From contig JACRAK010000007.1 of NCBI GenBank assembly GCA_016234725.1, forward strand, positions 2,121 to 66,120: DNA of 64,000 bases. Reading direction: 5' to 3'. Below are positions 2,512-63,208 of this stretch, piece by piece. The stretch comes from Candidatus Azambacteria bacterium (GTDB lineage Bacteria; Patescibacteriota; Minisyncoccia; GWC2-36-17; WO2-46-25). The first letter of the stretch is position 1. Each line of letters starts with the position of its first letter. Both the position numbers and the translations under genes were made by a program. The notes below the pieces were generated by a model. The model did not search any database. It worked only from the letters and a program-made list of their open reading frames with translations, and was not told the DNA's origin.

Positions 2512-3261
2512 TTGTCAATCAACTTTACGAGGTCGCACCTCGTAAGATATAATGAAATAGTGAAACGCCCTACTTTTGCCAACGAACACATTTACCATGC
2601 ATACAACAGAGGCGTGGAAAAACGAAATGTCTTTCTCGACGAGGAGGATTATTTTCGCTTCATACACGACCTTTTTGAATTTAATGATGTAAACCCTGCC
2701 CTGCCAAGTTCTTACCAATCTTACGAGGTCGCACCTCGTAAGATTGGGGTTGGGAAAAACAAGCGAAAACCGAGGGAATTTCTCGTTCATATACTTGCTT
2801 TTACTCTTATGCCAAATCATTTTCATCTTCTTCTTATGCAAAAACGGGAGAATGGAATTTCGGAATTTCTCAGAAAATTAAGTGGTGGGTACACAATGTA
2901 TTTTAATCAGAAATATGAAAGATCGGGCGTTCTTTTTCAGGGAAGATTCAAGGCGGCACTCGTTGAGCGAGACGCCCACTTTATCCATCTCCCGTATTAT
3001 ATTCATGCGAACCCCCTCGATCTTGTCATGCCGGAATGGCGCGAGGGGAACTTGAAAAATCCGGAAGCCGCATTCACCTTTCTTACGTCCTATAAGTGGA
3101 GCAGTTTTTCTGATTATATTGGCAAGAGAAATTTTCCATCCGTCACACAAAGGGAGTTTCTACTCAATGGTGCGGGTAACGAAGAAAGATATAAATCCGA
3201 TTTTATTTCATGGTTGAAAAGCATACAACTCGACACCATCTCGGATATAATCATTGAATAA
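2512..3261 (+). CDS. REP-associated tyrosine transposase (RAYT, IS200/IS605-like Y1 HuH transposase); TTG start in the track, true start uncertain
   Basis: HuH motif LMPNHFHLLL; YHAYNRG(V)EKRNVF N-terminal motif; flanked by and containing its cognate REP palindromes. Confidence 0.75.
   Translation: MSINFTRSHLVRYNEIVKRPTFANEHIYHAYNRGVEKRNVFLDEEDYFRFIHDLFEFNDVNPALPSSYQSYEVAPRKIGVGKNKRKPREFLVHILAFTLMPNHFHLLLMQKRENGISEFLRKLSGGYTMYFNQKYERSGVLFQGRFKAALVERDAHFIHLPYYIHANPLDLVMPEWREGNLKNPEAAFTFLTSYKWSSFSDYIGKRNFPSVTQREFLLNGAGNEERYKSDFISWLKSIQLDTISDIIIE
2525..2545. repeat. REP palindrome copy 1 (ttacgaggt-cgc-acctcgtaa) at the 5' end of the RAYT gene
   Basis: perfect 9-bp-arm palindrome, identical core to copies 2 and 3. 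Confidence 0.85.
2715..2747. repeat. REP palindrome copy 2 (15-bp arms) inside the RAYT ORF, in-frame (encodes YQSYEVAPRKIGVG)
   Basis: ccaatcttacgaggt cgc acctcgtaagattgg. Confidence 0.85.
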
Positions 3262-3300
3262 ACCAATTCTTACGAGGTCGCACCTCGTAAGAATTGGTTT
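3260..3300. repeat. REP palindrome copy 3 (19-bp arms) overlapping the RAYT stop codon
   Basis: aaaccaattcttacgaggt cgc acctcgtaagaattggttt. Confidence 0.85.
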
Positions 3301-10757: not shown

Positions 10758-11184
10758 ATTTTATTTTTCCCAATACAAACTCCTTAATTTTCTTTGCCGC
10801 TTCATATGCCTTTCTTGCTTCTTGAAATGTAAACTCGGGGTAATCTCCTGTATATCGGGTCTCTACATAATATCTATTAAGGAGAACAAGATCGTCTTCA
10901 TAATTCTTGATCTCTTTTTCATAGTGCAATAATAGGTCTTCTAATTTTAACAAGTCATGTATTTTGGGAAATCTTTTATCATAAAACACAAGCATTCCTT
11001 TTAGGTATTTTTCCGCCATTTGTTGTGAAAGAAAGCATGCGGTGCTTGGCGCGCCGCGCTCATCTCTTAAAATTGCGCCGATAGAGAGCTCATCCTCTTG
11101 CGCTTTCTTAAACAATTCGTGATGTTTTGTTTCATTATTCATTGCCATATAAAACCTTCCCTTTTTCAAAAATATCTTCCACAA
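10756..11184 (-). CDS. HEPN domain protein (toxin-like partner of the upstream nucleotidyltransferase); true start probably an internal Met near 11148
   Basis: HEPN (PF05168-like) motifs QQMAEKYLKGML and LLNRYYVETRY; overlaps the MNT gene. Confidence 0.7.
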   Translation of the reverse strand: MWKIFLKKGRFYMAMNNETKHHELFKKAQEDELSIGAILRDERGAPSTACFLSQQMAEKYLKGMLVFYDKRFPKIHDLLKLEDLLLHYEKEIKNYEDDLVLLNRYYVETRYTGDYPEFTFQEARKAYEAAKKIKEFVLGKIK

Positions 11185-11452
11185 AAAAATCCTTCAATTC
11201 CATTCTTTTTTGCACTTGTGCCGGAGTATATACAATTAAATCCATTGCGAACTGCCTTGGAAAAACAAAGCGATCTATTTTTCGCGCCATATCCCTCGTG
11301 TTTTCAGTTTCCTTCACAATAAACAAATCTACATCGCTGTCTTCGGTAGGGTTTCCCCACGCGTAAGAGCCGAAAAGAATAATTTTTTCCGGATTATATT
11401 CCTTGCCAATCCTATCCGCTGTTTCCTGAATTTTTTCAAAAGCTATTTTCAT
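11135..11452 (-). CDS. minimal nucleotidyltransferase (MNT, Pol-beta superfamily) paired with HEPN
   Basis: GSYAWGNPTEDSDVDLFIV = GS..G..x(n)..D.D nucleotidyltransferase motif; 105 aa. Confidence 0.8.
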   Translation of the reverse strand: MKIAFEKIQETADRIGKEYNPEKIILFGSYAWGNPTEDSDVDLFIVKETENTRDMARKIDRFVFPRQFAMDLIVYTPAQVQKRMELKDFFVEDIFEKGKVLYGNE

Positions 11453-11457
11453 TTTTA

Positions 11458-11604
11458 TTATTTTCTCCTGGCATCCATGTACAAGCGCAACGCCTGGCGG
11501 ATGAATTCGCTCTTTGTCTTCTCCTCTTTTTTCACCAGCTGCGCCGCCTCTTTCTCAAGCTTAGGGGGCAACGATATCACCCACACTTTTCTCTGGATCG
11601 CCAT
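11458..11604 (-). CDS. ribbon-helix-helix (CopG/MetJ-like) small DNA-binding protein, 48 aa; not in the ORF track (<60 aa)
   Basis: manual translation MAIQRKVWVISLPPKLEKEAAQLVKKEEKTKSEFIRQALRLYMDARRK; stop 6 nt upstream of the MNT start. Confidence 0.55.
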   Translation of the reverse strand: MAIQRKVWVISLPPKLEKEAAQLVKKEEKTKSEFIRQALRLYMDARRK

Positions 11605-11739
11605 ACTGTATTACTTTGTATTACATACCCCTTCTCCCCCTTCTTTCTTTTTCTAGATTCTAAATCCTAGATTCTAACTTCTATGTGCTGTATTACTTTC
11701 ATTATACATACAACGAAAATAATAGGGAAATCCGCATAG

Positions 11740-11750
11740 TGTGGATAACT
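11740..11750 (-). promoter_or_regulatory. DnaA-box-like 11-mer AGTTATCCACA (reverse orientation)
   Basis: tgtggataact; one of four identical 11-mers in the window. Confidence 0.5.
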
Positions 11751-11865
11751 TCCTTATTCACATTTCTGACTTCCCTATCATTTCCTTATTCCTCATGAGG
11801 GAAGTCGGATTTCACTCACCAATAAAAAAGCTCCTCGTACATGAGGTGCTTATGCTCTGTCTATT

Positions 11866-11886
11866 CTCTACTCCCTACTCGCTAAT
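11866..11886. repeat. GTAG-repeat family copy (tctactccctactcgctaa) at the yraN 3' end
   Basis: nearly identical to cctactccctactcgctaat at 56786-56806. Confidence 0.6.
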
Positions 11887-12256
11887 GTATGTTGATATTC
11901 TCTATATGCCGTATCTCGGCTTCCCCGCTTACATCGTCAAACACTGCAGAAATGCTGTCCATCTGCCACTTTTGCTCAGGGGAGATCTTGCGCACGAACA
12001 AAAACATCTCGACTGTCCTGGCGAACTTTCTCAGTTTATGAAAGGTGATGTTTTCCTCCGGCGCGATGTAACTCCCCTTCTTTACGCTCTTTACCTCCAC
12101 AAAAACAATATCGCCGCCAGGACTTCTGGCGACGACATCTATCTCTCCGAACTTCGTATTAAAATTGCGCTCAATTATCGAATACCCTTCAGAAATAAGA
12201 TATTCTGCCGCTTTTTCTTCCCCCGTATTTCCCGTTGCGCGCCTTTGAGTGATCAT
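11882..12256 (-). CDS. yraN: YraN family (UPF0102) endonuclease; start moved to the Met at 12256 because the track's N-terminal extension is encoded by tRNA-derived repeats
   Basis: EKAAEYLISEGYSIIERNFNTKFGEIDVVA...VFVEVK matches UPF0102; upstream 144 nt of the track ORF are tRNA fragments. Confidence 0.75.
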   Translation of the reverse strand: MITQRRATGNTGEEKAAEYLISEGYSIIERNFNTKFGEIDVVARSPGGDIVFVEVKSVKKGSYIAPEENITFHKLRKFARTVEMFLFVRKISPEQKWQMDSISAVFDDVSGEAEIRHIENINIH

Positions 12257-12262
12257 CTTTTG

Positions 12263-12297
12263 TGGACTCACCGGGAATCGAACCCGGAACTCAGCAA
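12263..12297 (-). other. orphan 3' half of tRNA-Ala (anticodon-stem 3' strand to discriminator), preceded by GC-rich leader TTTAGGCGGGCAGG
   Basis: 35 nt identical to positions 38-73 of the adjacent complete tRNA-Ala. Confidence 0.8.
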
Positions 12298-12316
12298 CCT
12301 GCCCGCCTAAATTTTG

Positions 12317-12387
12317 TGGACTCACCGGGAATCGAACCCGGAACTCAGCAATGCGAATGCTGCGTAATACCATTTTACTACGAGCCC
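12317..12387 (-). tRNA. tRNA-Ala (anticodon CGC)
   Basis: hand-folded cloverleaf: acceptor GGGCTCG/TGAGTCC with G3:U70 Ala identity pair, D-stem GTAA/TTAC, anticodon stem CAGCA/TGCTG, loop TTCGCAT, T-arm CCGGG-TTCGATT-CCCGG. Confidence 0.8.
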
Positions 12388-12418
12388 TTTTAAAGTCCAC
12401 AAAACTTGGGCGGGTGAA

Positions 12419-12452
12419 CGAATGCTGCGTAATACCATTTTACTACGAGCCC
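12419..12452 (-). other. orphan 5' half of tRNA-Ala (positions 1-35, ends ...CAGCATTCG), followed by 31-nt element TTCACCCGCCCAAGTTTTGTGGACTTTAAAA (12388-12418)
   Basis: 34 nt identical to the 5' half of the complete tRNA-Ala. Confidence 0.8.
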
Positions 12453-12483
12453 TTTTAAAGTCCACAAAACTTGGGCGGGTGAA

Positions 12484-12519
12484 CGAATGCCGCGTACTAC
12501 GACTATACTATGAGCCCCC
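12484..12519 (-). other. orphan 5' half of a different tRNA (GGGGGCTCATAGTATAGTCGTAGTACGCGGCATTCG), followed by the same 31-nt element (12453-12483)
   Basis: tRNA-like acceptor, D-arm and anticodon-stem 5' strand ending at TTCG, then an identical junction sequence. Confidence 0.65.
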
Positions 12520-12613
12520 TCTTTTCTTTTAAAACGAAATCATTATAATGCATGCATTGCAATTTGACAACTTCATACTACCAAAATCGTTTTAACGAAA
12601 AAGGAGGTGTCTT

Positions 12614-12982
12614 ATGATGGACAAAAATGAAAGAGAGATACTTGTCAATGCTCTAAAGGTTATAAAGGGAACTCGTTTCATTCCTCACGTATATTCAAAC
12701 ATGGCCTACAATAGCCGAGAATATACTGATGCCGTCGACGCATTGGTGAAGCTTTCCGGGGACAATGAAATCAGGGAAAAAGCGCAGCACTACGCCTTAA
12801 AATGGGAAGAGCGATTGAAGGAAAGAGGGGAGAAGGATCTCAAAGAATCAACAAAAAACGGCACTGGAAAGACGTTAAAGATACTAGGGGGATGTCTTTT
12901 TGCGCTTGCCGCGATTGGCACAACCGCGGGGATTGTGCATCATAGGAGAAAAAAAAATGAACAAAAGAAAACAGGGGAATAA
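12614..12982 (+). CDS. hypothetical protein with C-terminal transmembrane segment
   Basis: strong SD AAGGAGGTG 7 nt upstream; 122 aa; C-terminal hydrophobic stretch ILGGCLFALAAIGTTAGIV. Confidence 0.55.
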   Translation: MMDKNEREILVNALKVIKGTRFIPHVYSNMAYNSREYTDAVDALVKLSGDNEIREKAQHYALKWEERLKERGEKDLKESTKNGTGKTLKILGGCLFALAAIGTTAGIVHHRRKKNEQKKTGE

Positions 12983-13055
12983 TCCCCTGTTTTCCATTTT
13001 TTGCGTTTCTTTAAACTTCCAGATTCTATTTTCTAGTTTCTAGATTCTGCCTTAA

Positions 13056-13095
13056 TGGTCGGAATGCCGGGAATCGAACCCGGATTACACGCACC
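13056..13095 (-). other. orphan tRNA 3' half with encoded CCA (GTGCGTG-TAAT-CCGGGTTCGATTCCCGG-CATTCCG-A-CCA), preceded by leader TTTAGGCGGGTGAGAGG
   Basis: T-arm identical to the tRNA-Ala T-arm; its acceptor strand has no partner in the adjacent complete tRNA. Confidence 0.65.
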
Positions 13096-13123
13096 TCTCA
13101 CCCGCCTAAATTTCGTCTTGTTG

Positions 13124-13194
13124 TCGGGGTACTCGGAATCGAACCGAGACCACACGCACCCGAAGCGTGCGTACTGCCACTATACTATACCCCG
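13124..13194 (-). tRNA. tRNA-Pro (anticodon CGG)
   Basis: hand-folded: acceptor CGGGGTA/TACCCCG, anticodon stem CACGC/GCGTG, loop TTCGGGT, T-arm CTCGG-TTCGATT-CCGAG. Confidence 0.75.
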
Positions 13195-13450
13195 AAACTT
13201 TGGCGGGCGGGGCGTGCGTAATGCTTCACCCTCCCACCTTTTACACATATTAACTCCTCTAGAAACCAATCACCAATTCTGCTGGACGCTATGCAACTGC
13301 GTGCAGATGTAAAAAGGCGGGAGGGCAAGCTATACCACATTCCGAAATCCCCTATTTTCACACACCCGAAACGTCTTATGCGGGCTTCTCCGATAATGCG
13401 CCTTTTCGGGATATGTTACCATTTCCCGAAAACCCGCGCTATACCTGCTG

Positions 13451-14989
13451 TTACACGCGAAACTTCCTCTGTTCTTCCTCCTCAAGCAACTTAACCTTCT
13501 CCTCGCCTTTCTTTATCATCTCCGAAAGCTCGCTGATAGAAAACTTATCCAACACAACCGCCCGCGCTTCCAGATAATCTTTATCGTTTTTTTGCGGGTC
13601 GTCAAGAACCTCTGAAAACAAGGCATTGAGAATGACCCCCACTTTCGGCCCCGGCGCAATGCCCAATATCCGCATCACCTCGTTTCCGTCAATTTTGAGC
13701 ATTTTAACGGAGATCGGGTCTTTTGACACCTTCTCGACCATATACCTGAAATGGCGCAATTTATAGGGCTCCGCCTTTGGCACGCCCGACCCTATCCTAT
13801 CGGCAAACCGAACATTGACGAGATCGTCCATATTTTCAAGCCCGACATTCCGTACCAGCCGCCGCACGGAAGACGCCGTCACCTCGTCTACATTATAGTA
13901 AAAGAGGTGATAGCGGATGAGTCGCGCGACATCCTCGATTTCCTTATTCGAGAACTTCAATCGGCTCATCGCCTGTGCGGCGATGCGCGCGCCGATCATG
14001 TCGTGGTTGTAAAACGTGGCATTCGGTCCCTCGCCCTGTTTTGCCTTCGGCTTCCCAACGTCATGGAGCAACGCCGCAAATCGCACCGTAAAACTAAACC
14101 CTTGCTCTGCGGCATAGCGGAGCGATTTTAAATTATGCTCATACACATCGAATATATGGTGTTTGTTTTGTGAAACGTGATACCCGTCAAGCAATTCCGG
14201 CAAAACGAAATGCAAGAGCCCGACCTGGCGCAATAGATCGATGCCGTCTGCCGCGTTTTTGCACATGACTATTTTTATGAGTTCGTCGCGGATGCGCTCG
14301 TGTGAAACAACGCGAATGAGAGCGGCGTGTTCCTTAACCGCGACGAGCGTTTGTTCTTCTATGGTAAACTCAAGCTGTGTCGCAAATCGCACCGCGCGCA
14401 CCAAGCGCAACGCGTCTTCATTGAACCGCTCACTTGCGTTTCCAACCGCACGCACTATTTTTTCTTTCAGGTCTTTTTGTCCACCGAATGGATCGATGAT
14501 CGTGAAACGTAAATCCTGAATCTTGGAGCTTGCATCTTGAATCATGGATCTTGAATCCTGGGTTTCGGGTTTCAAGTTTTGAGTTTCAAGATCGAGCGCC
14601 ATCGCGTTGATCGTAAAATCTCTCCGCGCAAGATCTTCTTGTAAATGCGTCGTATATTGCACGCTGTCCGGATGGCGTTTGTCGGAATATGCATTATCGA
14701 CGCGATATGTCGTGATCTGAATTTCCATGCCGTCAATGAACGCGGTCACTGTGCCGAATTTGTTTTCGTAAAAACTTTTGGGGAACACTGCCTGTACTTC
14801 CTCCGGCTTCGCGTTGGTCGCCACGTCCCAATCATTCGGTTCGCGCCCGAGCAACACGTCGCGCACGCAACCGCCGACGGCATACGCCGCAAATCCCGCG
14901 CGCGCCAGCTCGCTCCCGACGTACATCACTTCTTTCGGAATTACCTCATGCATGCGCATACTATAATACGCTAACGCGCTCCGGCGCAA
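13451..14989 (-). CDS. cca: CCA-adding tRNA nucleotidyltransferase (head domain + HD domain), carrying an in-frame ~25-aa repeat-derived insertion
   Basis: GGCVRD...DWD, RDFTINAMA...IIDPFGG and HD-domain HDVGK motifs; insertion LETQNLKPETQDSRSMIQDASSKIQDL between them. Confidence 0.85.
   Translation of the reverse strand: MRRSALAYYSMRMHEVIPKEVMYVGSELARAGFAAYAVGGCVRDVLLGREPNDWDVATNAKPEEVQAVFPKSFYENKFGTVTAFIDGMEIQITTYRVDNAYSDKRHPDSVQYTTHLQEDLARRDFTINAMALDLETQNLKPETQDSRSMIQDASSKIQDLRFTIIDPFGGQKDLKEKIVRAVGNASERFNEDALRLVRAVRFATQLEFTIEEQTLVAVKEHAALIRVVSHERIRDELIKIVMCKNAADGIDLLRQVGLLHFVLPELLDGYHVSQNKHHIFDVYEHNLKSLRYAAEQGFSFTVRFAALLHDVGKPKAKQGEGPNATFYNHDMIGARIAAQAMSRLKFSNKEIEDVARLIRYHLFYYNVDEVTASSVRRLVRNVGLENMDDLVNVRFADRIGSGVPKAEPYKLRHFRYMVEKVSKDPISVKMLKIDGNEVMRILGIAPGPKVGVILNALFSEVLDDPQKNDKDYLEARAVVLDKFSISELSEMIKKGEEKVKLLEEEEQRKFRV
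14511..14590. repeat. tandem ATCTTGAAT-type repeat block lying in-frame inside cca
   Basis: gaatcttggagcttgcatcttgaatcatggatcttgaatcctgggtttcgggtttcaagttttgagtttcaagatcg; related to blocks at 45784-45905 and 46341-46450. Confidence 0.7.
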
Positions 14990-15124
14990 TAATAATGACC
15001 GCGGTGATATGTATTACAGTGTATTACTCTATCTCGGTTCTTACTATGCCTGTTATTACTACGGGACGAAAGAGAGGAGAGGGGAGGGGAGAGAAAAAGA
15101 AGAAAGGAATTTGTAATACACTCG

Positions 15125-15156
15125 TCACAAACTCACGCGTATGCGTGAGTTTGTGA
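15125..15156. repeat. dispersed palindromic element copy 1 (tcacaaactcacgc-gtat-gcgtgagtttgtga), preceded by tgtaataca
   Basis: perfect 14-bp arms; near-identical copies at 15756-15789 and 24111-24142. Confidence 0.8.
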
Positions 15157-15169
15157 TTTTCCTGTTCTC

Positions 15170-15718
15170 TTATTCAATTCCGAATACGCGCTTTAATTTT
15201 TCTTCCCCTTCAAAGCGGGACACATACATGAGTATGATGTGATCCCGAACACCCCAAAATACGCCAAGCGCATCTATTTCCTTCTCGCATGGAAACGGAG
15301 ATAAAAACACGCTCTTTTGCAGCTGATAAAAATCGAGTTCTTTTAATTTCCGTCGCAGCGCATCGCGCGCCGTATTCTTATGGCTCGGGATATCAAACAT
15401 CACCAACCGCCATGTACCATCCCAGCGCTTCGGCCGTGCAAGCGTCATGGTTTCAAGATTATATTTCAACACCGCTTCTTTTCCGCCCGCCTTTAATCGC
15501 AAACGGATCGTCCCATCTGCGGCCTCATGTATATCGATCAATTCTCGTTTCTGCAGGCGCTTCAGATCCTGCATAAATTTGTTTTTTTCAAATTTTTTCG
15601 CGCGCATATACTCCCGTAGCAATTGGCGGGGGAGAAGAGGATTTGCGACGGAAAGCGCCGCAACACCGCCGGCAAGCGCCACGAAATGCAAAATCTTTTT
15701 TGTATGCGAATCTTTCAT
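15170..15718 (-). CDS. hypothetical protein: N-terminal hydrophobic segment, wHTH-like region, C-terminal Cas2/VapD-like (PaaX-C-like) fold suggested by WRLVMFDIPSHKNTARDALRRKLKELDFYQLQKSVF
   Basis: 182 aa ORF; the motif resembles the Cas2/VapD beta-alpha-beta core; weak, family not certain. Confidence 0.4.
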   Translation of the reverse strand: MKDSHTKKILHFVALAGGVAALSVANPLLPRQLLREYMRAKKFEKNKFMQDLKRLQKRELIDIHEAADGTIRLRLKAGGKEAVLKYNLETMTLARPKRWDGTWRLVMFDIPSHKNTARDALRRKLKELDFYQLQKSVFLSPFPCEKEIDALGVFWGVRDHIILMYVSRFEGEEKLKRVFGIE

Positions 15719-15755
15719 ATATATCTATATCCTATCTCCAGTATATCAGATATTT

Positions 15756-15789
15756 GTCACAAAATCACGCATACGCGTGATTTTGTGAC
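15756..15789. repeat. dispersed palindromic element copy 2 (gtcacaaaatcacgc-atac-gcgtgattttgtgac)
   Basis: variant of the 15125 and 24111 copies. Confidence 0.75.
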
Positions 15790-15904
15790 AAGCTTATGAA
15801 AAGATGTAGCGCACGGTGGGCGCGTACTATGCATTGTGCAACCATAAAAAAGGTGGTATAAAAGCCTGGTATCGTTATCGTATTTACTGCGCGCGCGCCT
15901 GTAG

Positions 15905-15979
15905 CTCAACGGATAGAGCGCATCCCTGCGAAGGATGAGACCGAGGTTCAATTCCCCGCAGGCGCACCAATAGCATTTC
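15905..15979 (+). tRNA. tRNA-Arg (anticodon GCG) with encoded CCA
   Basis: acceptor GCGCCTG/CAGGCGC, D-arm GCTC-AACGGATA-GAGC, anticodon stem CATCC/GGATG, loop CTGCGAA, T-loop TTCAATT, one A-C mismatch in the T-stem. Confidence 0.7.
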
Positions 15980-16121
15980 ATACATTGTTGGCTCTCAAAG
16001 AAACACTGTATGACACGCCCATAATTGAACCAGGGAAGGGGTCGGGAAACCTATGGGTTTCCCGTTGCGGAAATATTAAAACCGAAGGGTTTTAAAAAGT
16101 GAGCGAGGTGACGAGCGAGCG

Positions 16122-16144
16122 CGTTCAATTCCCCGCAGGCGCAC
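16122..16144 (+). repeat. 23-nt direct repeat of the tRNA-Arg 3' end (gttcaattccccgcaggcgcacc), att-like scar
   Basis: exact copy of 15956-15978, about 165 bp downstream. Confidence 0.75.
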
Positions 16145-16190
16145 CGAAGCAAAACCCTCTCGCACATACGCGCGAAGGGGTTTTGCACAT

Positions 16191-16610
16191 ATGCACATAG
16201 CGGGGAAGCGAGCTTCCGTATATAATGGAGGCATGGCGAAAAAGAGAAAGAGTATCCTTATCATAGAAGACGAGGCGGCGCAGATCCACGCGCTCGAAAA
16301 AACATTTCTCAAAGAGGGGTATGCCGTGCATGCCGCGGAAAACGGACAGGAAGGATTCGAGAAAGCAAAAGTGGAAACGCCCGATGTCATTCTGCTTGAT
16401 ATCATCATGCCGGTCATGGACGGCATCACCGCGCTTGAAAAAATAAACGGCGACGATGACACAAAACACATTCCCGTGATCGTGCTCACCAATTTCGCGC
16501 TGTATGAACAAGTGCGCCCGTTCATGGACCAGGGCAAAGACCATTTCCTTACCAAGATCAACACGTCGCTTAAAGACGTCGTTACAAAAGCAAACACCAT
16601 TCTCTCGTGA
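16191..16610 (+). CDS. standalone response-regulator receiver (CheY-like REC) protein; probable start at the Met at 16233
   Basis: ILIIEDE...DVILLDIIMPVMDG...KHIPVIVLT...K motifs; no output domain. Confidence 0.8.
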   Translation: MHIAGKRASVYNGGMAKKRKSILIIEDEAAQIHALEKTFLKEGYAVHAAENGQEGFEKAKVETPDVILLDIIMPVMDGITALEKINGDDDTKHIPVIVLTNFALYEQVRPFMDQGKDHFLTKINTSLKDVVTKANTILS

Positions 16611-24615: not shown

Positions 24616-24713
24616 GGTATACTATTAACTAACCCATTCGATAGACTCAGGGTTAGTCCTGAGTGCAGTCGAAGGACTAATAACTTTTAACTAACAATTA
24701 ATAACTCACACAC

Positions 24714-26143: not shown

Positions 26144-27856
26144 ATGCATATTTCTGAGGCGAACCTCAAAAAGATCGTCGTCGCATCGGGCATCATCTCT
26201 GATGCGCAATTTGAAGCGGCGCGGCAGGAAGCGCTGCGGTCAAACCGCACCATCGGCAACGTACTCATCGGCAAAGGAGATATCACGGAAAATTATTTCG
26301 CCGAGATCGTCGCGAACTATTTTGCCGTGCCCATCGTGAATTTCCAGGCCGCGCCGCCCGATGACGCCGCGCTTCACTTGCTCCCCGAACAATTCTCGAA
26401 AGCAAAACGCATCGCGCTGTTTGCCATCGATCATGAGAAAAAAACGGCAAAGCTCGCGATGGAAGACCCGGGCGACCTTAAAACCATCGACCTTGTTGCC
26501 GCAAAATTCGATATGCGCGTTGAGCCGCATCTCGCCACATCGTTATCGATGAAGGTCGCTTTTAAAGAATACAAGAAAGATATTTACAAAGAATTCAACA
26601 CGATCATCGAGGAGTCCATCAAGGAAGCGCTTGCGGCGGGCAACGTCAAAGACATCGGGAAAATGGCCGAGCATGTGCCCATCATCGCCATCACCGACGG
26701 ACTCATGGAGTACGCGGTCGCGCTCGGCGCATCCGATATTCATATCGAACGCCTGCCGGAAAAAGTGCTCGTGCGCTACCGCATCGACGGCATCCTGCGC
26801 GACATCGTGGAACTCCCCAAAGAGATCGACGACGCCATCATCGCCCGCATCAAAATACTTTCAAGCCTCCAGATCGATGTCCACTTCACGCCGCAAGACG
26901 GCCGGTTCAAGTTCAAACTTGAAGACCAATCCATCGACGTACGCGTATCCGTCATGCCCACGTTCTACGGCGAAAAAGTGGTCATGCGCCTCCTCCGCGG
27001 CTCGATCCGTCCTTTGAACCTTGCCGAACTCGGCATATCCGAACGGGACATCGCCACTATCAATGAAGCCATCAAACGGACGTTCGGCATGATCCTCATC
27101 ACCGGCCCGACCGGCTCAGGTAAGACCACCACGCTGTATGCGATACTCCACAAGCTCAATACGCCGACGGTCAACATCGCCACGATCGAAGACCCTATCG
27201 AGTACGACGTCGAGCGCATCAACCAAACACAGGTGAACCCCAAAGCCGGCATCACCTTCGCCAACGGCCTGCGCAGCTTGATGCGCCAGAACCCCGACAT
27301 CATCATGGTGGGGGAGATCCGCGACGAAGAAACCGTTTCTATTTCACTCAACGCCGCGATGACCGGCCACCTTGTGCTTTCCACACTCCACACCAACGAC
27401 GCGCCCACCGCGATCCCGCGGTTCATCGATATGGGCGGCGAGCCGTTCCTTGTGGCAAACACGCTCAATGTCATCATCGCCCAGCGGCTCGTACGCCGCA
27501 TCTGCACCGTCTGCGTTTCAAGCTATACGCCGACACCAGAAGCGAAAGAATCCATGAAAAAACAGCTTGCGCTCTACCATGCCGACCCCGCCCGCATCAA
27601 GATCCCTTCCCAGCTATACAAAGGAAAAGGGTGTCAGGCATGTTCAGGCACCGGCTATTCGGGACAGATCGGGATCTTTGAGGTGCTCAATGTAAGTCCG
27701 CGCATCAGAGAACTTATCAAACCGGGCGTTGCCATCGACCAATTGCGCGCGGTCGCCGAGGAAGAAGGGATGCGCCGCATGTTCGAGGACGGCCTCGCAA
27801 AAGCGGAGGCCGGCGCCACCACCATCGAAGAAGTGTTCAGGGTCATTATGGAGTAA
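26144..27856 (+). CDS. pilB: type IV pilus assembly ATPase PilB (GspE family)
   Basis: GSPII_E N-terminal domain; Walker A GPTGSGKTT; Asp-box MVGEIRD; CxxC...CxxC tetracysteine. Confidence 0.9.
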   Translation: MHISEANLKKIVVASGIISDAQFEAARQEALRSNRTIGNVLIGKGDITENYFAEIVANYFAVPIVNFQAAPPDDAALHLLPEQFSKAKRIALFAIDHEKKTAKLAMEDPGDLKTIDLVAAKFDMRVEPHLATSLSMKVAFKEYKKDIYKEFNTIIEESIKEALAAGNVKDIGKMAEHVPIIAITDGLMEYAVALGASDIHIERLPEKVLVRYRIDGILRDIVELPKEIDDAIIARIKILSSLQIDVHFTPQDGRFKFKLEDQSIDVRVSVMPTFYGEKVVMRLLRGSIRPLNLAELGISERDIATINEAIKRTFGMILITGPTGSGKTTTLYAILHKLNTPTVNIATIEDPIEYDVERINQTQVNPKAGITFANGLRSLMRQNPDIIMVGEIRDEETVSISLNAAMTGHLVLSTLHTNDAPTAIPRFIDMGGEPFLVANTLNVIIAQRLVRRICTVCVSSYTPTPEAKESMKKQLALYHADPARIKIPSQLYKGKGCQACSGTGYSGQIGIFEVLNVSPRIRELIKPGVAIDQLRAVAEEEGMRRMFEDGLAKAEAGATTIEEVFRVIME

Positions 27857-27867
27857 CTCCCAACTAA

Positions 27868-27885
27868 TAACTAACAACTTATAAC
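27868..27885. repeat. left inverted repeat of 4HB cassette 1 (taactaacaacttataac)
   Basis: 17/18 match to the reverse complement of 28292-28310. Confidence 0.7.
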
Positions 27886-27897
27886 AAATAACACACT

Positions 27898-28257
27898 GTG
27901 GAGGCTTTCCGATTCAAAAACTGGAGCGTTTATAAAGAAGCAAAGGCCTTATTCATGTCTGTCGTAAAAATAACACACGAGCTACCCAGTGAATACAGAT
28001 ACACAATAGGCGACCAAATGATCCGCTCGGGGCTATCAATCGTTTTAAACATTGCGGAAGGAAGCGGTAAAGAATCGGACAAGGAATTGAACAGATATTT
28101 CAACATCGCCATGGGTTCGACCAATGAAACGCTTGCGGTTATTGATGTCCTTAGCGATCTTCGTATAGCGGATGAAAAGAAAATGGAAGAAGCAGAAAAG
28201 TTATGCGTAAGCATTTCGAAACAGCTTGGCGGATTTAAAAAGAAGTTAAAAAAATAA
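27898..28257 (+). CDS. four-helix-bundle protein (23S rRNA intervening-sequence protein family, Avd-like)
   Basis: FKNWSVYKEAKAL...SGLSIVLNIAEGSGKESDKELNRYFNIAMGSTNET. Confidence 0.8.
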   Translation: MEAFRFKNWSVYKEAKALFMSVVKITHELPSEYRYTIGDQMIRSGLSIVLNIAEGSGKESDKELNRYFNIAMGSTNETLAVIDVLSDLRIADEKKMEEAEKLCVSISKQLGGFKKKLKK

Positions 28258-28291
28258 GTCCACGTAAGTTATCAGTTAATGGTTATAAGTT

Positions 28292-28310
28292 TTTAGTTAA
28301 CGGCCATGCC
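28292..28310. repeat. right inverted repeat of 4HB cassette 1 (gttataagtttttagttaa)
   Basis: reverse complement ttaactaaaaacttataac. Confidence 0.7.
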
Positions 28311-29517: not shown

Positions 29518-29527
29518 GGTTATAACA

Positions 29528-29556
29528 GCGAGTAGAATGTAGCGAGTAGGGAGTAG
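29528..29556. repeat. left inverted repeat of 4HB cassette 2, GTAG-repeat family (gcgagtagaatgtagcgagtagggagtag)
   Basis: 15-mer gcgagtagaatgtag is the exact reverse complement of part of 29971-29992. Confidence 0.8.
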
Positions 29557-29616
29557 AAGAAATGCAAAAGAGAAGCAAAAATCAGAACTTAGGGAGTAGG
29601 GAAAAGAGCGTGAGAA

Positions 29617-45264: not shown

Positions 45265-45782
45265 GCTTGTTTTCTTCTTCCCAAAAGGGTTTTTCCCTCG
45301 TTGAACTGCTGATCTACATCAGCATCTTTTCGGTCATTTCCGCTATTTTTATCGGCGTGCTGTCGCACGCGACGCTCGGGTGGACACGCTCGAAAGTAGA
45401 GTCGGAAGTACAGCAGAATCTGCGTTTTGCGATGGAAGATATCGCCCGCACCGCACAGAAAGCGACATCCATTTCTTCGCCGTCCGTCGGAAGCTCGGCA
45501 AGCGCGCTCACCGCGGTCGTCGGCGGACAAACCATACAATACTCGCTTTCGGGCACCGTACTGCAAAAACAAACTGGCGCAAACCCCGTAGAAAATATCA
45601 CTACCGATAAAGTAAAGGTGACCTATCTTTATTTCAAAACGCTCCAAAACACCGCACTATCAAACACCGGCGTACAGGCGACCTCGACCCGATTTGCCAT
45701 GACCGTGGAGTATAATTCCGACAACAATCAATTTTTCTACACCGAGCATGCCACATCGACCGCAACGCTTAAAAACAGGTGA
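45261..45782 (+). CDS. pseudopilin / minor pilin
   Basis: KG/FSLVELLIYISIFSVISAIFIGVL. Confidence 0.8.
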   Translation: MSLFSSSQKGFSLVELLIYISIFSVISAIFIGVLSHATLGWTRSKVESEVQQNLRFAMEDIARTAQKATSISSPSVGSSASALTAVVGGQTIQYSLSGTVLQKQTGANPVENITTDKVKVTYLYFKTLQNTALSNTGVQATSTRFAMTVEYNSDNNQFFYTEHATSTATLKNR

Positions 45783-45783
45783 T

Positions 45784-45905
45784 CATGAAACATAGATCGT
45801 GAAACTTGAAACATGAAACATCAGGGCTTGAAACATATAACATATAACTTGAAACTGAGCGATTCAGGATTCACGTTTCAGGATTCACGTTTCAGGATTC
45901 ATGAA
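45784..45905. repeat. intergenic repeat block (cttgaaacatgaaac ... 3x caggattcacgttt ... aggattcatga) upstream of and overlapping the PilX-like gene start
   Basis: shares start and end motifs with 46341-46450 and the in-frame block in cca. Confidence 0.7.
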
Positions 45906-46340
45906 CGGGGCGCCGCTCTGCTTGCAACCACGCTTGCCGTTATCATCATCCTGCTTGCGATGGGTCTTTCCATGACATCATCGGGCCTGTTTGAAGGGCT
46001 TATGTCGCAGGCGCAAAGCGACTCGCGCGAGGCGTTCGCGGCCGCGCAATCGGGCGTCAAAGACGCTTATTTGCGCATCGCGCGCAATAAGGGCTTTTCT
46101 TCCGCGGGATATTATATCCCGTCCGATCCCTCCAATTGCACGCTCAACAGCTCTTCTTTGTGCACAAAAGTGATCGTGGAAAAAGACACCGCCGCATCAT
46201 GTTCCCAGTCGATCAGCGCCGGACAGGACTGCCTTATCGTTGCCGGAACGCTCAAAAATACGACGCGAACGATAGAGGTCATTTTGAATGTCAATACAAC
46301 TAATGGTAAAATAAGCGAAGTGTTGTGGAAGGAAATATAG
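45813..46340 (+). CDS. PilX-like minor pilin (non-canonical prepilin N-terminus ERGAALLATTLAVIIILLAMGL); start codon uncertain
   Basis: hydrophobic N-terminal helix after an ERG motif; pilus-cluster context. Confidence 0.55.
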   Translation: MKHQGLKHITYNLKLSDSGFTFQDSRFRIHERGAALLATTLAVIIILLAMGLSMTSSGLFEGLMSQAQSDSREAFAAAQSGVKDAYLRIARNKGFSSAGYYIPSDPSNCTLNSSSLCTKVIVEKDTAASCSQSISAGQDCLIVAGTLKNTTRTIEVILNVNTTNGKISEVLWKEI

Positions 46341-46450
46341 GTCTTGAAACATGAAACGTAAAACTTATAACTCAAAACTTAAAGCTTCAAGACTCGAGTT
46401 CAAGGTTTATGACACATGTTTCAAGTTTCACGATTTAAGATTCAAGATTC
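46341..46450. repeat. intergenic repeat block (cttgaaacatgaaac ... ttcaagattcaagattcatgga) upstream of pilM
   Basis: related to 45784-45905. Confidence 0.7.
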
Positions 46451-47932
46451 ATGGATTTAGCACAACTTTTTAAGCCGGTTGAAAAGATCGTCGGCATGGA
46501 GATCGCGCACGGGCGCGTGTGCGCGGTGTTGCTTGAAAAAGACAAAAAGGGCGTTGTTACCGGCACGAAAAAGGAAGCGGTGATCCCCCATGATATCGTC
46601 GCGGAGGACGGCACGGTACTCGACAAGCAAAAGCTCGCCCTAGCGCTCAAAACGATCTGGCACGCGGGAAAGGATGTTCTCAGATCAAAATATGTCATCG
46701 TCGCGCTCCCTTCGGCGCCGGTGTTCACCGATATCGTCAGATTCCCCAAGGTCACCCAAGAACAACTGAAAGAGGCGATGGAGCTGCATATGGCGACGAA
46801 AACATCGTTTCCCATCGACACGAATGATATTTATTACGACTGGCAGCCGCTCACCGCGCATAATGTGTATCATGAGGATGTTCTTTTGAGCTTCGCAAAA
46901 CAGCCGTATATCCGCGACTTCGCGGAAGCGTGCGAAGCGGCGGGGCTTGAGCCGCTCGCGTTCGAAACGCCGCAACCCGCGACCCTGCGCGCGATCACCA
47001 ACTTTGAGAAAAAAACCGGTTTGCTTATCCGCGTCTCGCAGGAATGCGCGGAATTTTCCATTGCTGCCGGCGCCGACCTATTCTTCACTCGCACCATACC
47101 GCTTCCTCCTTCGTACGATCTTGAAACGCTCAAAAACGCTCTTGCGACCGAAGCGACGCATGCGCTCAACTATTACGCGACGGAAAACCCCGAAGAAGCG
47201 CCCGTGACGACCGCTGTTCTTCTTACGCATGTGCCGCAAAAACAAGAGCTTGCCGCCCATCTTCGCACAGCGCTCGGCATCGAAATTGCAGATGCGCGGT
47301 TCGCTCATGATACCGCCATAGGGGACTCGTGCGCGGCGGCGTTCGGCGCTGCGTTGCGCGGGCTTGTCCGCAGAGAGGAGGACACGCTCATCAGCCTTTT
47401 GCCGATCGGCACCGAAGAAGCATATCGCAAACGGCGCTTTCTCGCTTATGTATCGCTCTGGTCTGATATCATCAATGCAACCGCGCTCCTCCTTGTCGTT
47501 CTGTTTGGCGCGACATGGTTTTTCGTCAATATTGCCTACACGAATGCGGTCCGCCAGACGACCCAGCTGAAAGCGGCATCGGGCGCAAGCACAAAGAGCG
47601 ACGAACTGGAACAAAACGCGCAGCGCTTCAATGCGGCGGTCGGGCGCATCACAGCGGCAAATGATACCATCATGCCATGGTCTCTTTTCATAGAAAAAAC
47701 ACTTCCCTCATTCACCAAAAACGACATCACCATGGAAAGCGTTTCATTTCCCTCATTCCGTTCCGACGGATCGCTTCAGATCACGGCGAAAACGCGCGCC
47801 AGCGCGATCGCATTCCGTAAAGCGCTGGAAGAAGATCCTCTGTTTTCCGAAGTGCACATGCCCTTCCTCAGCGTGACGCAAAAAGAGAACATCCTCCTTA
47901 CCATTACTTTCCGCTTCGCACCACAACCATGA
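46451..47932 (+). CDS. pilM: type IV pilus assembly protein PilM (actin-like ATPase fold) fused to a PilN-like TM/periplasmic segment
   Basis: N-terminal 350 aa PilM-like; TM at LLLVVLFGATWFFVNIAY then a periplasmic tail. Confidence 0.7.
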   Translation: MDLAQLFKPVEKIVGMEIAHGRVCAVLLEKDKKGVVTGTKKEAVIPHDIVAEDGTVLDKQKLALALKTIWHAGKDVLRSKYVIVALPSAPVFTDIVRFPKVTQEQLKEAMELHMATKTSFPIDTNDIYYDWQPLTAHNVYHEDVLLSFAKQPYIRDFAEACEAAGLEPLAFETPQPATLRAITNFEKKTGLLIRVSQECAEFSIAAGADLFFTRTIPLPPSYDLETLKNALATEATHALNYYATENPEEAPVTTAVLLTHVPQKQELAAHLRTALGIEIADARFAHDTAIGDSCAAAFGAALRGLVRREEDTLISLLPIGTEEAYRKRRFLAYVSLWSDIINATALLLVVLFGATWFFVNIAYTNAVRQTTQLKAASGASTKSDELEQNAQRFNAAVGRITAANDTIMPWSLFIEKTLPSFTKNDITMESVSFPSFRSDGSLQITAKTRASAIAFRKALEEDPLFSEVHMPFLSVTQKENILLTITFRFAPQP

Positions 47933-58350: not shown

Positions 58351-58452
58351 AACATAGCGAGTAGAACGTAGGACAAACACCAAAAAACAAAAACGGGGCT
58401 TCCACCCGTTTTTTTCTACTCGCTACCCCCTACTCCCTACGTTCTACATTCT
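58346..58452. repeat. GTAG-repeat palindromic element enclosing a bidirectional terminator (hairpin aaacggg-gcttcca-cccgttt at 58390-58417)
   Basis: arms gtagaacatagcgagtagaacgtagg / cctacgttctac...ctactcgctac. Confidence 0.75.
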
Positions 58453-58460
58453 GTGCGCCC

Positions 58461-61823: not shown

Positions 61824-62294
61824 ATGGAAACTTCAGAAACTATGACGTGTCAAAAAAGGTGTTGCGTGAATGCCGCAAATCGCACCGTAAAAAAAGTGCT
61901 CTGCATCATCGTGGTCATCGCGGCGCTCGTGTGGGTCGATACGAATTTCAACATCATTGCGTCGTCACAAGCCAACAAACAAGCGCGCGCACACTTGCAA
62001 GCGGTGTTTTTATCCAACGGCCAGGTATATTTCGGCGCGCTGTCGCGCCACGGCATCGGCTTCTGGCGCCTCGACCGCGCGCACTATCTGCAAGTATCAA
62101 AAACTCCTTCGGCGCTTTCCCCCGAAACACCAGACGGCACCGCGCCCCAAGAAACGCGCACCACGCTCATGAAATTGAGCGACGACATGCACCGCCCGCA
62201 AAACACCTTATTCATTCCCGCATCGCAGATCCTTTTTTGGCAAAATCTGCAAAACGACTCTCCGGTCGCACAGGCGATCATATCAGGCCAATGA
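61824..62294 (+). CDS. membrane-anchored hypothetical protein, paralog of 40005-40439
   Basis: shared sequence blocks (see 40005). Confidence 0.5.
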   Translation: METSETMTCQKRCCVNAANRTVKKVLCIIVVIAALVWVDTNFNIIASSQANKQARAHLQAVFLSNGQVYFGALSRHGIGFWRLDRAHYLQVSKTPSALSPETPDGTAPQETRTTLMKLSDDMHRPQNTLFIPASQILFWQNLQNDSPVAQAIISGQ

Positions 62295-63208
62295 CCCCGC
62301 GGCCGAACAAGCGGCTCGGCCAAAATTTCCTCGTCAACCGCGGGATCATCGAGAAGATCATCGCCGCGGCCGCGCTTGAAAAAACAGATACCGTACTCGA
62401 GGTCGGCCCCGGGCACGGCGCGCTCACGCTTGAACTCGCTCAAAAAGCGGAGAGGGTCATCGCAATAGAAAAAGACAGGGGACTCGCAGAAATCCTGCGC
62501 GCAAAATTGGCTGAAAAAAAGATTGCGAACGTCGAAATTATCGAAGGCGACATCCTCGTGTTTCTTTCTACTCGCTACTCGCTACTGCCTACTCGCTACT
62601 GCGTCGTCGCCAATATCCCGTACTATCTCACCTCCGCGCTCATCCGCCAATTGCTTGAACTCGCGCATCCGCCGGAGCGCATCATTCTCACCATTCAAAA
62701 AGAAGTCGCCCAGCGCATCGCGGCGCACGGCGGTAAAGAAAGCATTCTTTCGCTCGCGGTGAAATTTTACGCGGACGCACAGATCCTTTTTTACGTTTCG
62801 CGCGGCTCGTTCTCGCCATCACCCAACGTGGACTCCGCGGTGATAGAAATAATCCCGCGAAAAGAAAAGCAGGCCGTCGCGCCCGAAGTGTTTTTTACCG
62901 TCGTAAAAGCGGGGTTCTCGGCGCCGCGCAAAAAACTACTCGGCAATCTTGCAAAAGGATTATCCATAGAAAAAGAGAAAATTGCGGCGATGTTCGCACG
63001 GCTCGGCGTGGATGCGGATGTCCGCTCCGAGCAGCTTTCGCTCGCCCAATGGCTCGCCCTTGCCCCCGCACTTATGTATGGGCGTGAGGGCTTGCCCCGT
63101 AGAAGCACTTCGGCTGCCGCAAAGCGGCAAAAAGACGTAGTCAGCCGAAGTCCTCTATCGGGGCTTGCGCGATCAAGTAAAAAAGATATACTGAAAGCAA
63201 ATAATTAA
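62291..63208 (+). CDS. rsmA: 16S rRNA (adenine1518/1519-N6)-dimethyltransferase RsmA/KsgA, with GTAG-repeat-derived codons in-frame and a ~25-aa C-terminal extension over a hairpin element
   Basis: RLGQNFLVN...VLEVGPGHGALT...VVANIPYY. Confidence 0.8.
   Translation: MTPRPNKRLGQNFLVNRGIIEKIIAAAALEKTDTVLEVGPGHGALTLELAQKAERVIAIEKDRGLAEILRAKLAEKKIANVEIIEGDILVFLSTRYSLLPTRYCVVANIPYYLTSALIRQLLELAHPPERIILTIQKEVAQRIAAHGGKESILSLAVKFYADAQILFYVSRGSFSPSPNVDSAVIEIIPRKEKQAVAPEVFFTVVKAGFSAPRKKLLGNLAKGLSIEKEKIAAMFARLGVDADVRSEQLSLAQWLALAPALMYGREGLPRRSTSAAAKRQKDVVSRSPLSGLARSSKKDILKANN
62563..62610. repeat. GTAG-repeat copy lying in-frame in rsmA (tctactcgctactcgctactgcctactcgctactgc, encoding STRYSLLPTRYC)
   Basis: same ctactcgctactcg motif as the intergenic copies. 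Confidence 0.7.

Follow-up and report, generated by a model that had tools for sequence, protein, structure and literature searches.

An in-frame heptamer-array insert in the CCA-adding enzyme gene of Candidatus Azambacteria, a probable coding-region copy of hairpin-forming repeats found across Patescibacteria

The cca gene on a 64,000-nt stretch of DNA from Candidatus Azambacteria (the whole of which is referred to below as the window) encodes a class II CCA-adding enzyme with a C-terminal HD domain, and it carries, between the codons for two catalytic motifs, an in-frame insert composed of degenerate 7-nt tandem repeats. This insert is probably a coding-region copy of hairpin-forming heptamer arrays that occur genome- and phylum-wide, translated as a disordered passenger of the enzyme and subject to selection at the level of the nucleic acid. 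Relatives' loci and homologous proteins are designated by codes of the form Lnnn and Pnnnn, respectively, and the coordinates of the principal features of the window are collected in Table 1.

In-frame tandem repeats within cca had been noted in a sequence-only reading of the window, and they were recovered by TRF at 14512-14561 and 14569-14590, inside the CCA-enzyme open reading frame (ORF), with periods of 7, 14 and 21 nt, the last two being harmonics. The translation given in that reading (LETQNLKPETQDSRSMIQDASSKIQDL) is correct and in frame, and its placement of the insert between RDFTINAMA and IIDPFGG agrees with alignment to CCA-enzyme structures, in which residues 134-162 of the query face three residues of 6ibp; solved CCA enzymes have three to four residues at this position. 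An insertion of about 80 nt and 25 residues had been estimated, and the insertion itself stands, its exact extent being 14507-14590, or 84 nt and 28 codons, of which about 26 residues are extra. The unit was misjudged, since it is one of 7 nt and not the 9-nt sequence ATCTTGAAT, which spans one and a bit units according to both TRF and autocorrelation. Likewise, what had been taken for a single direct array is instead a pair of heptamer arrays in inverted orientation, of the general form (CTTGAAA)4, a turn and (ATTCAAG-like)7, that can form a hairpin. When read in a shifted register ([AT]TTCA[ACG]G), the right arm is the reverse complement of the left-arm family (CTTGAAA versus TTTCAAG), and three alternative registers (inverted repeats I1-I3, with 72-78% complementarity) would allow the left arm to pair with the right arm, which is the longer of the two. 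TRF matches of 74-78% show the units to be degenerate.

In an alignment of 120 homologous sequences, all from Patescibacteria, the NA-to-IIDPF spacing is 34 residues in the window protein and 8-9 in the shortest versions, an excess of 26 amino acids. An AlphaFold2 model of the 500-aa protein, built on 40 sequences, has a mean pLDDT of 82 and falls below 50 solely at residues 125-147, which lie between strands 119-122 and 150-153. In the model, the insert appears to lengthen the tip of the beta-hairpin that joins motif B to motif C, and its residues are probably disordered. Rfam searches returned no match at the insert in E-value mode (11000-16500) and, in gathering mode, three tRNAs only for the whole window; a promoter and terminator scan of 13000-15400 gave nothing at the insert, and no intron features were seen there. 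Flanking target-site duplications were also sought and not found, the sole direct repeat being one of 14 nt with an 86% match that falls within conserved codons (FTIN/FTII) and is probably due to chance. [quoted passage not shown]

The enzyme itself is otherwise conventional in its domains and motifs. The mechanical ORF (13451..14989, minus strand, 512 codons) reaches upstream to a TTG at 14989, the annotated protein having 500 aa, and contains the Pfam domains PolyA_pol, PolyA_pol_RNAbd, HD and tRNA_NucTran2_2, with the head and the RNA-binding neck matched at E-values of 3e-36 (PF01743) and 1.6e-19 (PF12627). CCA enzymes in the PDB match the ORF at an E-value of 3e-55, and the best PDB matches of the AlphaFold2 model are likewise CCA-adding enzymes (Foldseek probability 1.00 to 1miv and 6qxn). 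The ORF matches a 500-aa NCBI protein of 'Candidatus Azambacteria' (P0001) at 100% identity, and the exact window protein was found on one contig only. Despite the insert, motifs A to E are intact (GGCVRD..DWD, RRDFTINA, DPFGGQKDL, EDALRLVRAVRF and ERIRDE, checked against the patterns GGxVRD..DxD, RRD, DxxGGxxDL, EDxxRxxRxxRF and ERxxxE) and form invariant columns in the homologue alignment. The product is predicted to add CCA to tRNA 3′ ends, and because the adjoining tRNA-Ala gene does not encode its CCA end, cca should be essential.

All of the inserts in more than 100 homologues keep the reading frame and contain no stop codon. Repetition of the consensus left-arm unit would, in the frame used, bring up a TGA every 21 nt, and the second left-arm unit is altered exactly at this would-be TGA in 10 of 10 CTTGAAA-type orthologues, the variants being CTCAAAA, CATACAA, CACGCAA, CACAAAA, CGCGTAA, CTCGCAA, CATGCAA and CGCAAAA. 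TGA is always avoided in frame, and therefore the insert is, to judge from the sequence, read through by ribosomes under the standard bacterial code and translated.

Codon use within the insert was compared among eight CTTGAAA-type genes in pairs that are not independent of one another. For distant pairs, third-position identity rises from 0.37-0.50 in the rest of the gene to 0.6-0.92 within the insert, and identical amino acids are specified by the same codon in 47% of cases outside versus 78% inside when the pairs are pooled; for L092 and L170, the same codon is used at 17 of 17 such positions inside the insert and at 136 of 317 outside (p = 1e-6). This rise in codon identity stops abruptly at the limits of the insert, while amino-acid identity inside the insert is no higher than elsewhere in the protein. 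Given the far stronger conservation of synonymous sites within the insert, it is the nucleotide sequence of the insert that appears to be constrained and not its peptide; we infer that selection on a hairpin is the cause.

Arrays of the same period are abundant in the surrounding DNA. An autocorrelation scan of the window detected 13 arrays at period 7, compared with 0-1 in 20 block shuffles, and every other period from 4 to 15 gave none or one, except for the harmonic 14. Non-redundant Patescibacteria loci retrieved around cca genes (1.43 Mb in all) contained 139 period-7 arrays versus 6-40 for other periods and 51 for the harmonic 14, and the total for these relatives is 139-164 depending on the scan. 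Twenty heptamer arrays were listed in the window, nearly all of them intergenic and typically in inverted pairs, and only two, those in cca and ksgA, are internal to long ORFs. Heptamer arrays have a mean GC content of 21%. The sequence-only reading had recognized the cca repeats as a second family distinct from GTAG; the distinction is sound, but the window holds at least five unit families and not two, namely CNTGAAA, CTACNNN ('GTAG'), TTCTAGA, AACTAAT and GACATTT/AAAAGTC. A motif common to these families (UAG-N4 HutP-like sites or the CRISPR 5′-handle TTGAAAC) was considered and rejected, as the consensus units are diverse and have only AT-richness in common.

It had also been proposed that the family of the cca insert forms two blocks in the pilus cluster, and this is the case, both blocks consisting of C[ATG]TGAAA units followed by [AT]TTCA[ACG]G units. 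The first has a predicted RNA fold of -32.4 kcal/mol (z -4.1, with 0 of 200 shuffles as good) and overlaps the 5′ end of a PilX-like ORF (Pfam PilX_N), and the second ends at the ATG (46451) of a PilM-like gene (Pfam PilM_2). Because the units are degenerate, a strict search for the CNTGAAA pattern matched solely the 45.8-kb cluster, and the assignment of arrays to this family therefore rests on reading them in register. The PilX-like ORF (45813-46340) and a pilin-like ORF (30484-31197) start within heptamer arrays, their true start codons being uncertain; CATGAAA units supply an ATG-AAA, and the leader peptides may be partly repeat-encoded. Elsewhere, an intergenic AACTAAT array lies upstream of a pilin gene in the window (24670-24710) and in the orthologous position in L001 (642-686) and L003 (907-955), and it differs by one unit between close relatives, which shows that non-coding copies vary in their number of units.

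The same loop of the CCA enzyme is occupied in many relatives, with 0 to 56 extra residues across the 120 homologues, and where DNA was fetched the long inserts mostly show period 7. In the syntenic loci L005 and L088, whose proteins are 88% identical to that of the window, the left arm reads CTTGAAA CATACAA CATGAAA CATGAAA and, beyond a loop, the right arm reads TTTCAGG TCTCAAG ATTTAAG TTTCGAG. L001/L089 and L087/L095 (86-87% identity, syntenic) carry a different family, (ATAACNN)n followed by (NNGTTAT)n, and L003 (85%, syntenic) lacks an insert. More distant lineages have other arm pairs, including CATGGAA/CTCCATG (a Moranbacteria locus), CGTGGAA/ATCCACG (a Moraniibacteriota locus), CTCATAA/GAGTTAC (a Falkowbacteria locus) and AGGAATT/AATTCAT, and their inserts fold at z -2.5 to -7.9; in L171 both arms have switched together in a compensatory manner, to CCTGAAA and TTTCAGG (-32.7 kcal/mol). 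In the sister-lineage loci L093-L097, the same loop contains another repeat, a GC-rich palindrome (peptide CHPERSEGSRD...). The GC-rich repeat, in L093-L097 as well as in P0024, P0025 and P0030, has the peptide CHPERSEGSRDSSLIAQNDRY in up to three partial copies, and the loop of P0030 reaches 64 residues. Inserts correspond to the repeats of the genome in which they lie: in L032, (AAAATTG)n occurs in cca as well as at four intergenic sites nearby, and L010 and L038, which among the loci checked are the two without any arrays in about 21 kb, have the minimal loop of 9 aa.

A second housekeeping gene of the window is affected in the same way. In ksgA/rsmA (62273..63208), a (CTACTCG)n array lies in frame at 62556-62605 and encodes LVFLSTRYSLLPTRYCV between GDIL and VANIPYY, in agreement with the earlier suggestion that these repeat families tolerate coding sequence, in this instance the GTAG/CTACTCG family. 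Bacillus subtilis KsgA has a loop of roughly the same length where the array stands here. The KsgA loop between GD(I/A)L and VANxPYY also carries arrays in L008 (1417-1473) and L030 (4300-4334), the unit differing in each lineage. A scan of all loci for arrays lying at least 50 codons inside long ORFs yielded further examples in a UvrD-like protein (L051), a PPDK-like protein and a CTP-synthase-like protein, and in a second CCA loop in L133. In-frame heptamer arrays in the loops of housekeeping proteins are therefore a general feature of this group. The single CCA gene of L133 has arrays in two head-domain loops (2489-2544 and 2687-2744), the second being situated between NKFGT and the next strand.

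We propose that the insert is transcribed and translated together with cca, its 26 or so extra residues projecting from the head domain and leaving the catalytic motifs intact, and that the peptide is a passenger. Selection would have two components, one keeping the frame open (the length is a multiple of three and the would-be TGA unit in each 21 nt is altered) and the other acting on the nucleotide sequence and on the complementarity of the arms. The arrays would arise, grow and shrink by replication slippage, and the complementarity of their arms would persist through selection on a hairpin (of DNA or RNA), through intrastrand template switching, or through both. The CCA loop, like one loop of KsgA, would be among the few places in housekeeping proteins that tolerate such DNA, and this tolerance would account for the variety of heptamer families, and of other palindromic repeats, seen at precisely this position from one lineage to another.

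Heptamer arrays in inverted orientation also bracket genes of the IVP (S23p) family. PF05635/TIGR02436 is the '23S rRNA intervening sequence protein', an Avd-like four-helix bundle. Two cassettes of this kind are present in the pilus cluster of the window (Table 1), and inverted heptamer arrays were found on both sides of 10 of the 11 IVP genes examined, from several candidate phyla, with L034 having an array on one side only. Bracketed IVP genes in relatives include L084 16435-16803, L051 4576-4950, L022 9609-9986 and L168 1418-1789, each with a different heptamer unit, and four independently fetched homologues (L172-L175, around 1501-1869, from Gottesman-, Harrison-, Lipton- and Taylorbacteria) are similarly bracketed, one of them being situated between groES and groEL. 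These cassettes sit inside operons, for example between pilB and pilC or groES and groEL. The two in the pilus cluster have the organization of an S23p intervening sequence (IVS), a stem enclosing a PF05635 ORF, whereas in the cca insert the arms are separated by just a turn of 7 nt, which holds no ORF. By analogy, the heptamer-array hairpins might, tentatively, be viewed as the stems of Patescibacteria-wide IVS-like elements with an S23p gene in the loop, of which the cca and ksgA inserts would be ORF-less derivatives. Full forms would then sit in operons and in frame ahead of pilin genes instead of in rRNA, and ORF-less derivatives would colonize permissive protein loops, where selection on nucleic-acid structure would keep them. 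If this were true, it would define a previously undescribed class of mobile or RNA-processing element that shapes essential proteins in the candidate phyla radiation (CPR). As to individual cassettes, the second IVP gene of the window runs in frame and without a stop through its right-hand array into a pilin (29617-30465), giving a 282-aa IVP-pilin ORF whose pilin part has the N_methyl motif KGFTILELIVV at about 30001, and in L168 the right-hand array supplies the start codon and leader (MKLTKLKASK/GFTILE) of the adjacent pilin.

Several observations weigh against the interpretation of the insert as a passenger whose DNA is under selection. The window copy itself folds weakly, with a z-score that lies between -1.1 and -1.6 for dinucleotide shuffles and reaches -2.6 for mononucleotide ones, and its structure may no longer matter. 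In the closest pair (the window and L005) the codon trend is reversed, the window insert having diverged, with an expanded right arm and weak pairing, so that this copy looks eroded. The conservation of synonymous sites could equally result from transfer of the element alone between lineages. A neighbour-joining tree, in which short loops with an ancestral-looking S-E-x-G-E turn are interspersed among insert-bearing sequences, is compatible with one old insertion followed by losses and replacements as well as with repeated gains. Finally, the left-arm peptide DLET.N.KHET is fairly conserved in one subgroup, leaving room for a role as a protein loop. That the extra loop is an adaptive, tRNA- or partner-binding extension of Patescibacteria CCA enzymes, the DNA repeats being incidental, would accord with its wide distribution in these bacteria and with the retention of its length and much of its sequence among some relatives 68-93% identical, but is nevertheless improbable: codon identity in the insert is much higher and amino-acid identity is not, the opposite of what selection on the protein would produce, the loop is predicted to be disordered, and solved enzymes do without it. 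The sequence-only reading had held that an invariant repeat count and protein-level conservation in relatives would mark the segment as a native linker, and the relatives give a mixed answer, with length and sequence kept in some, the insert absent at 85% identity and an unrelated family in its place at 86-87%. The insert is thus not a native linker that the enzyme requires, and not a fast contingency locus either. The latter possibility, in which slippage would alter length or frame and switch cca expression, is very improbable, although the insert is a tandem repeat within an ORF and the intergenic AACTAAT array differs by one unit between the window and L001. A contingency locus would have a near-perfect tract of variable length that switches frame, whereas the cca units are degenerate and no length variation was seen; identical cca genes from three samples have identical inserts, lineages 93% identical have inserts of the same length, and the differences among relatives are not multiples of 7 aa. 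The phase-variable length that had been suggested for the insert is accordingly not sustained, all the more so as slippage by one or two 7-nt units would frameshift a gene needed for maturation of the adjoining tRNA-Ala.

A cis-acting role in the cca mRNA, where the hairpin would be retained as an RNase III or other processing, decay or pause signal, partly overlaps with the preferred interpretation, and on its own we consider it unlikely. The sharply delimited conservation of synonymous sites and the strong hairpins of many orthologues would fit such an element, as would the similar stems that bracket S23p/IVP genes in the manner of RNase III-cleaved rRNA intervening sequences, but an 85%-identical orthologue has no insert, many relatives have a minimal loop, the window copy folds poorly, and the presence of the repeat class in ksgA, other ORFs and intergenic DNA means that nothing about it is specific to cca. 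Quite unlikely, too, is descent of the insert, as an ORF-less form, from a mobile IVS-like cassette that has heptamer-array stems and a site preference and that inserted here repeatedly. Unrelated heptamer families and a GC-rich palindrome do occupy the same codon interval in different lineages, short S-E-x-G-E loops are interspersed with insert-bearing sequences in the tree, the insert is more conserved in nucleotide sequence than its host gene, and IVP cassettes with heptamer stems are found in several places, the groES-groEL and pilB-pilC intervals among them. Against this, no target-site duplication was found, the copies of a family within a genome are arrays of differing unit number instead of discrete, near-identical units, and CTTGAAA-type inserts all share frame and boundaries, as common descent predicts; no enzyme could be linked to the arrays, the one candidate being flanked by a different hairpin (see below), and survivorship bias accounts equally well for recurrence at the site because insertions elsewhere would be lethal. 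Excision of the insert from the RNA, or its bypass by the ribosome as in mitochondrial 'byp' elements or T4 gene 60, is very improbable: hairpin-forming DNA is indeed present inside an ORF, but the inserts of more than 100 homologues are all in frame and free of stops, the would-be TGA unit is altered in all ten orthologues, and neither an Rfam match nor intron features were detected.

Table 1. Features of the window discussed in the text (pilus-cluster hairpins belong to the cca-insert family).
Feature	Position	Strand	Evidence
cca, class II CCA-adding enzyme with C-terminal HD domain	13451..14953	minus	Pfam, PDB homologues, identical NCBI protein, AlphaFold2
Motif B codons (RRDFTINA), upstream side of insert	14603..14626	minus	Translation; invariant alignment columns
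Motif C codons (IIDPFGG), downstream side of insert	14480..14500	minus	Translation; PDB alignment; invariant columns
Insert, 12 heptamers, 84 nt, 28 codons, encodes LETQNLKPETQDSRSMIQDASSKIQDLR	14507..14590	minus	TRF, direct reading, PDB and homologue alignments
Left arm: CTTGAAA CTCAAAA CTTGAAA CCCGAAA	14563..14590	minus (coding strand)	Direct reading
Turn unit CCCAGGA between arms	14556..14562	minus	Direct reading; fold
Right arm: TTCAAGA TCCATGA TTCAAGA TGCAAGC TCCAAGA TTCAGGA TTTACGT	14507..14555	minus	Inverted-repeat search
Pilus-cluster hairpin: (C[ATG]TGAAA)n then ([AT]TTCA[CG]G)n	45782..45907	plus	Fold; PilX_N
Second pilus-cluster hairpin	46337..46462	plus	Fold z -2.95
First IVP cassette, pilus cluster	27851-28299 (arrays 27851-27899 and 28264-28299)		PF05635 and inverted arrays
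Second IVP cassette, pilus cluster	29521-29995 (arrays 29521-29560 and 29968-29995)		PF05635 and inverted arrays

Other repeats of the window were recorded in passing. A long stem (z -5.8) made up of inverted GTAG-family arrays (AGAACGT/AGCGAGT and CTACTCG/CTACGTT), at 58337-58458, encloses a classic intrinsic terminator hairpin with its T-run, between two convergent genes. At 12316-12517, a 65-nt unit repeated 2.5 times with 93% identity duplicates the 5′ half of tRNA-Ala(CGC) and the sequence upstream of it, and may be the scar of an integration or of a tandem duplication. An IS200/Y1-transposase-like gene (2512..3261; homologue of Pfam Y1_Tnp), with homologues in L014, L043, L011 and L168, matches the REP-associated tyrosine transposases (RAYTs) weakly (38 bits, the cut-off being 80) and has flanking copies of TTACGAGGTCGCACCT (2526-2540 and 3264-3290), the downstream one being a perfect hairpin. 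A RAYT was considered as the mobilizer of the arrays and rejected, given that this gene is flanked by TTACGAGGTCGCACCT hairpins and not by heptamers and that no link to the arrays was found.

If the insert is indeed a passenger, part of the sequence of essential enzymes in these ultra-small groundwater bacteria would be dictated by repeat DNA and not by protein function, with one loop of the CCA enzyme and one of KsgA repeatedly occupied by 7-base hairpin repeats native to the genome concerned. Such occupancy has implications for the coexistence of selfish or structural DNA with coding constraint, since synonymous sites here are more constrained than amino acids, and also for the annotation and alignment of CPR proteins, in which apparent low-complexity "CPR-specific insertions" may be repeat DNA. 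The insert sites point to permissive positions for protein engineering, and the association of heptamer stems with S23p/IVP genes makes it possible to test ideas about the function of the IVP family, long a puzzle, and of heptamers such as STRRs (see below).

The closest analogues of these arrays appear to be the short tandemly repeated repetitive (STRR) heptamers of cyanobacteria, the TAACTGA heptamer repeats and the Rickettsia palindromic elements (RPEs); in the open-access literature no description was found of heptamer arrays in Patescibacteria or of their recurrence in CCA and KsgA loops. STRRs resemble the class to which the insert belongs in having tandem 7-nt units, several families per genome and a mostly intergenic location, and, like the cca insert, they reportedly also occur inside a functional gene, that of RNase P RNA, at a dispensable hairpin tip. 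The arrays described here differ in their occurrence in Patescibacteria, in their AT-rich units and in forming hairpins from inverted pairs, and the units of the window (CNTGAAA, CTACNNN, TTCTAGA, AACTAAT and GACATTT) are unlike the STRR consensus units of heterocystous cyanobacteria. Heptamers are the commonest class of long simple sequence repeats (SSRs) in many bacteria, for which polymerase slippage has been proposed (Mrazek, 2007, in PMC4679880; also PMC4692102), a 7-nt polymerase contact being put forward as the basis of the heptamer step (Mrazek, 2007, as summarised in PMC4679880). TAACTGA heptamers are found in Beggiatoaceae, Cyanobacteria and Bacteroidetes, and within ORFs they lie mostly at protein ends (PMC4679880), whereas the arrays considered here are situated in frame within a conserved catalytic domain, and in enzymes that are essential. 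Phase-variable SSRs share with the cca insert the presence of a tandem repeat inside an ORF, but the units of the insert are degenerate and not of 1-5 nt, the gene is an essential housekeeping one, and no length polymorphism was seen.

RPEs, which a review treats alongside other small repeats fused within ORFs (PMC3184786, citing Ogata, 2000), are palindromic, lie in frame in housekeeping genes, where they add a surface peptide, and also occur in intergenic DNA. The cca insert has in common with them a palindromic repeat located in frame in an ORF and also in intergenic DNA; the two are set apart by description, RPEs being discrete elements of 105-146 bp with a family consensus and the insert an 84-nt tract with variable unit number and order and a lineage-specific unit. 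Repetitive extragenic palindromic (REP) sequences and bacterial interspersed mosaic elements (BIMEs) with their RAYTs, together with MITEs, are like the arrays in being short, dispersed, hairpin-forming and mostly extragenic repeats, but the insert is AT-rich and has neither the GTAG/CGTC-tagged, GC-rich palindrome of 20-40 bp nor the discrete copies of the REP/RAYT system. In the 23S rRNA IVS of Coxiella, terminal inverted repeats form a stem of about 28 bp and RNase III excises the element (PMC4990558). An IVS with an S23p ORF resembles the cca insert in that a small loop is replaced by an extended stem-loop where continuity is not needed; the insert has no ORF in its loop, resides in a protein-coding gene and not in rRNA, and must be translated and not excised. 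The IVP cassettes of the pilus cluster and of other Patescibacteria have the same architecture as such an IVS, but are located in operons and have stems composed of heptamers.

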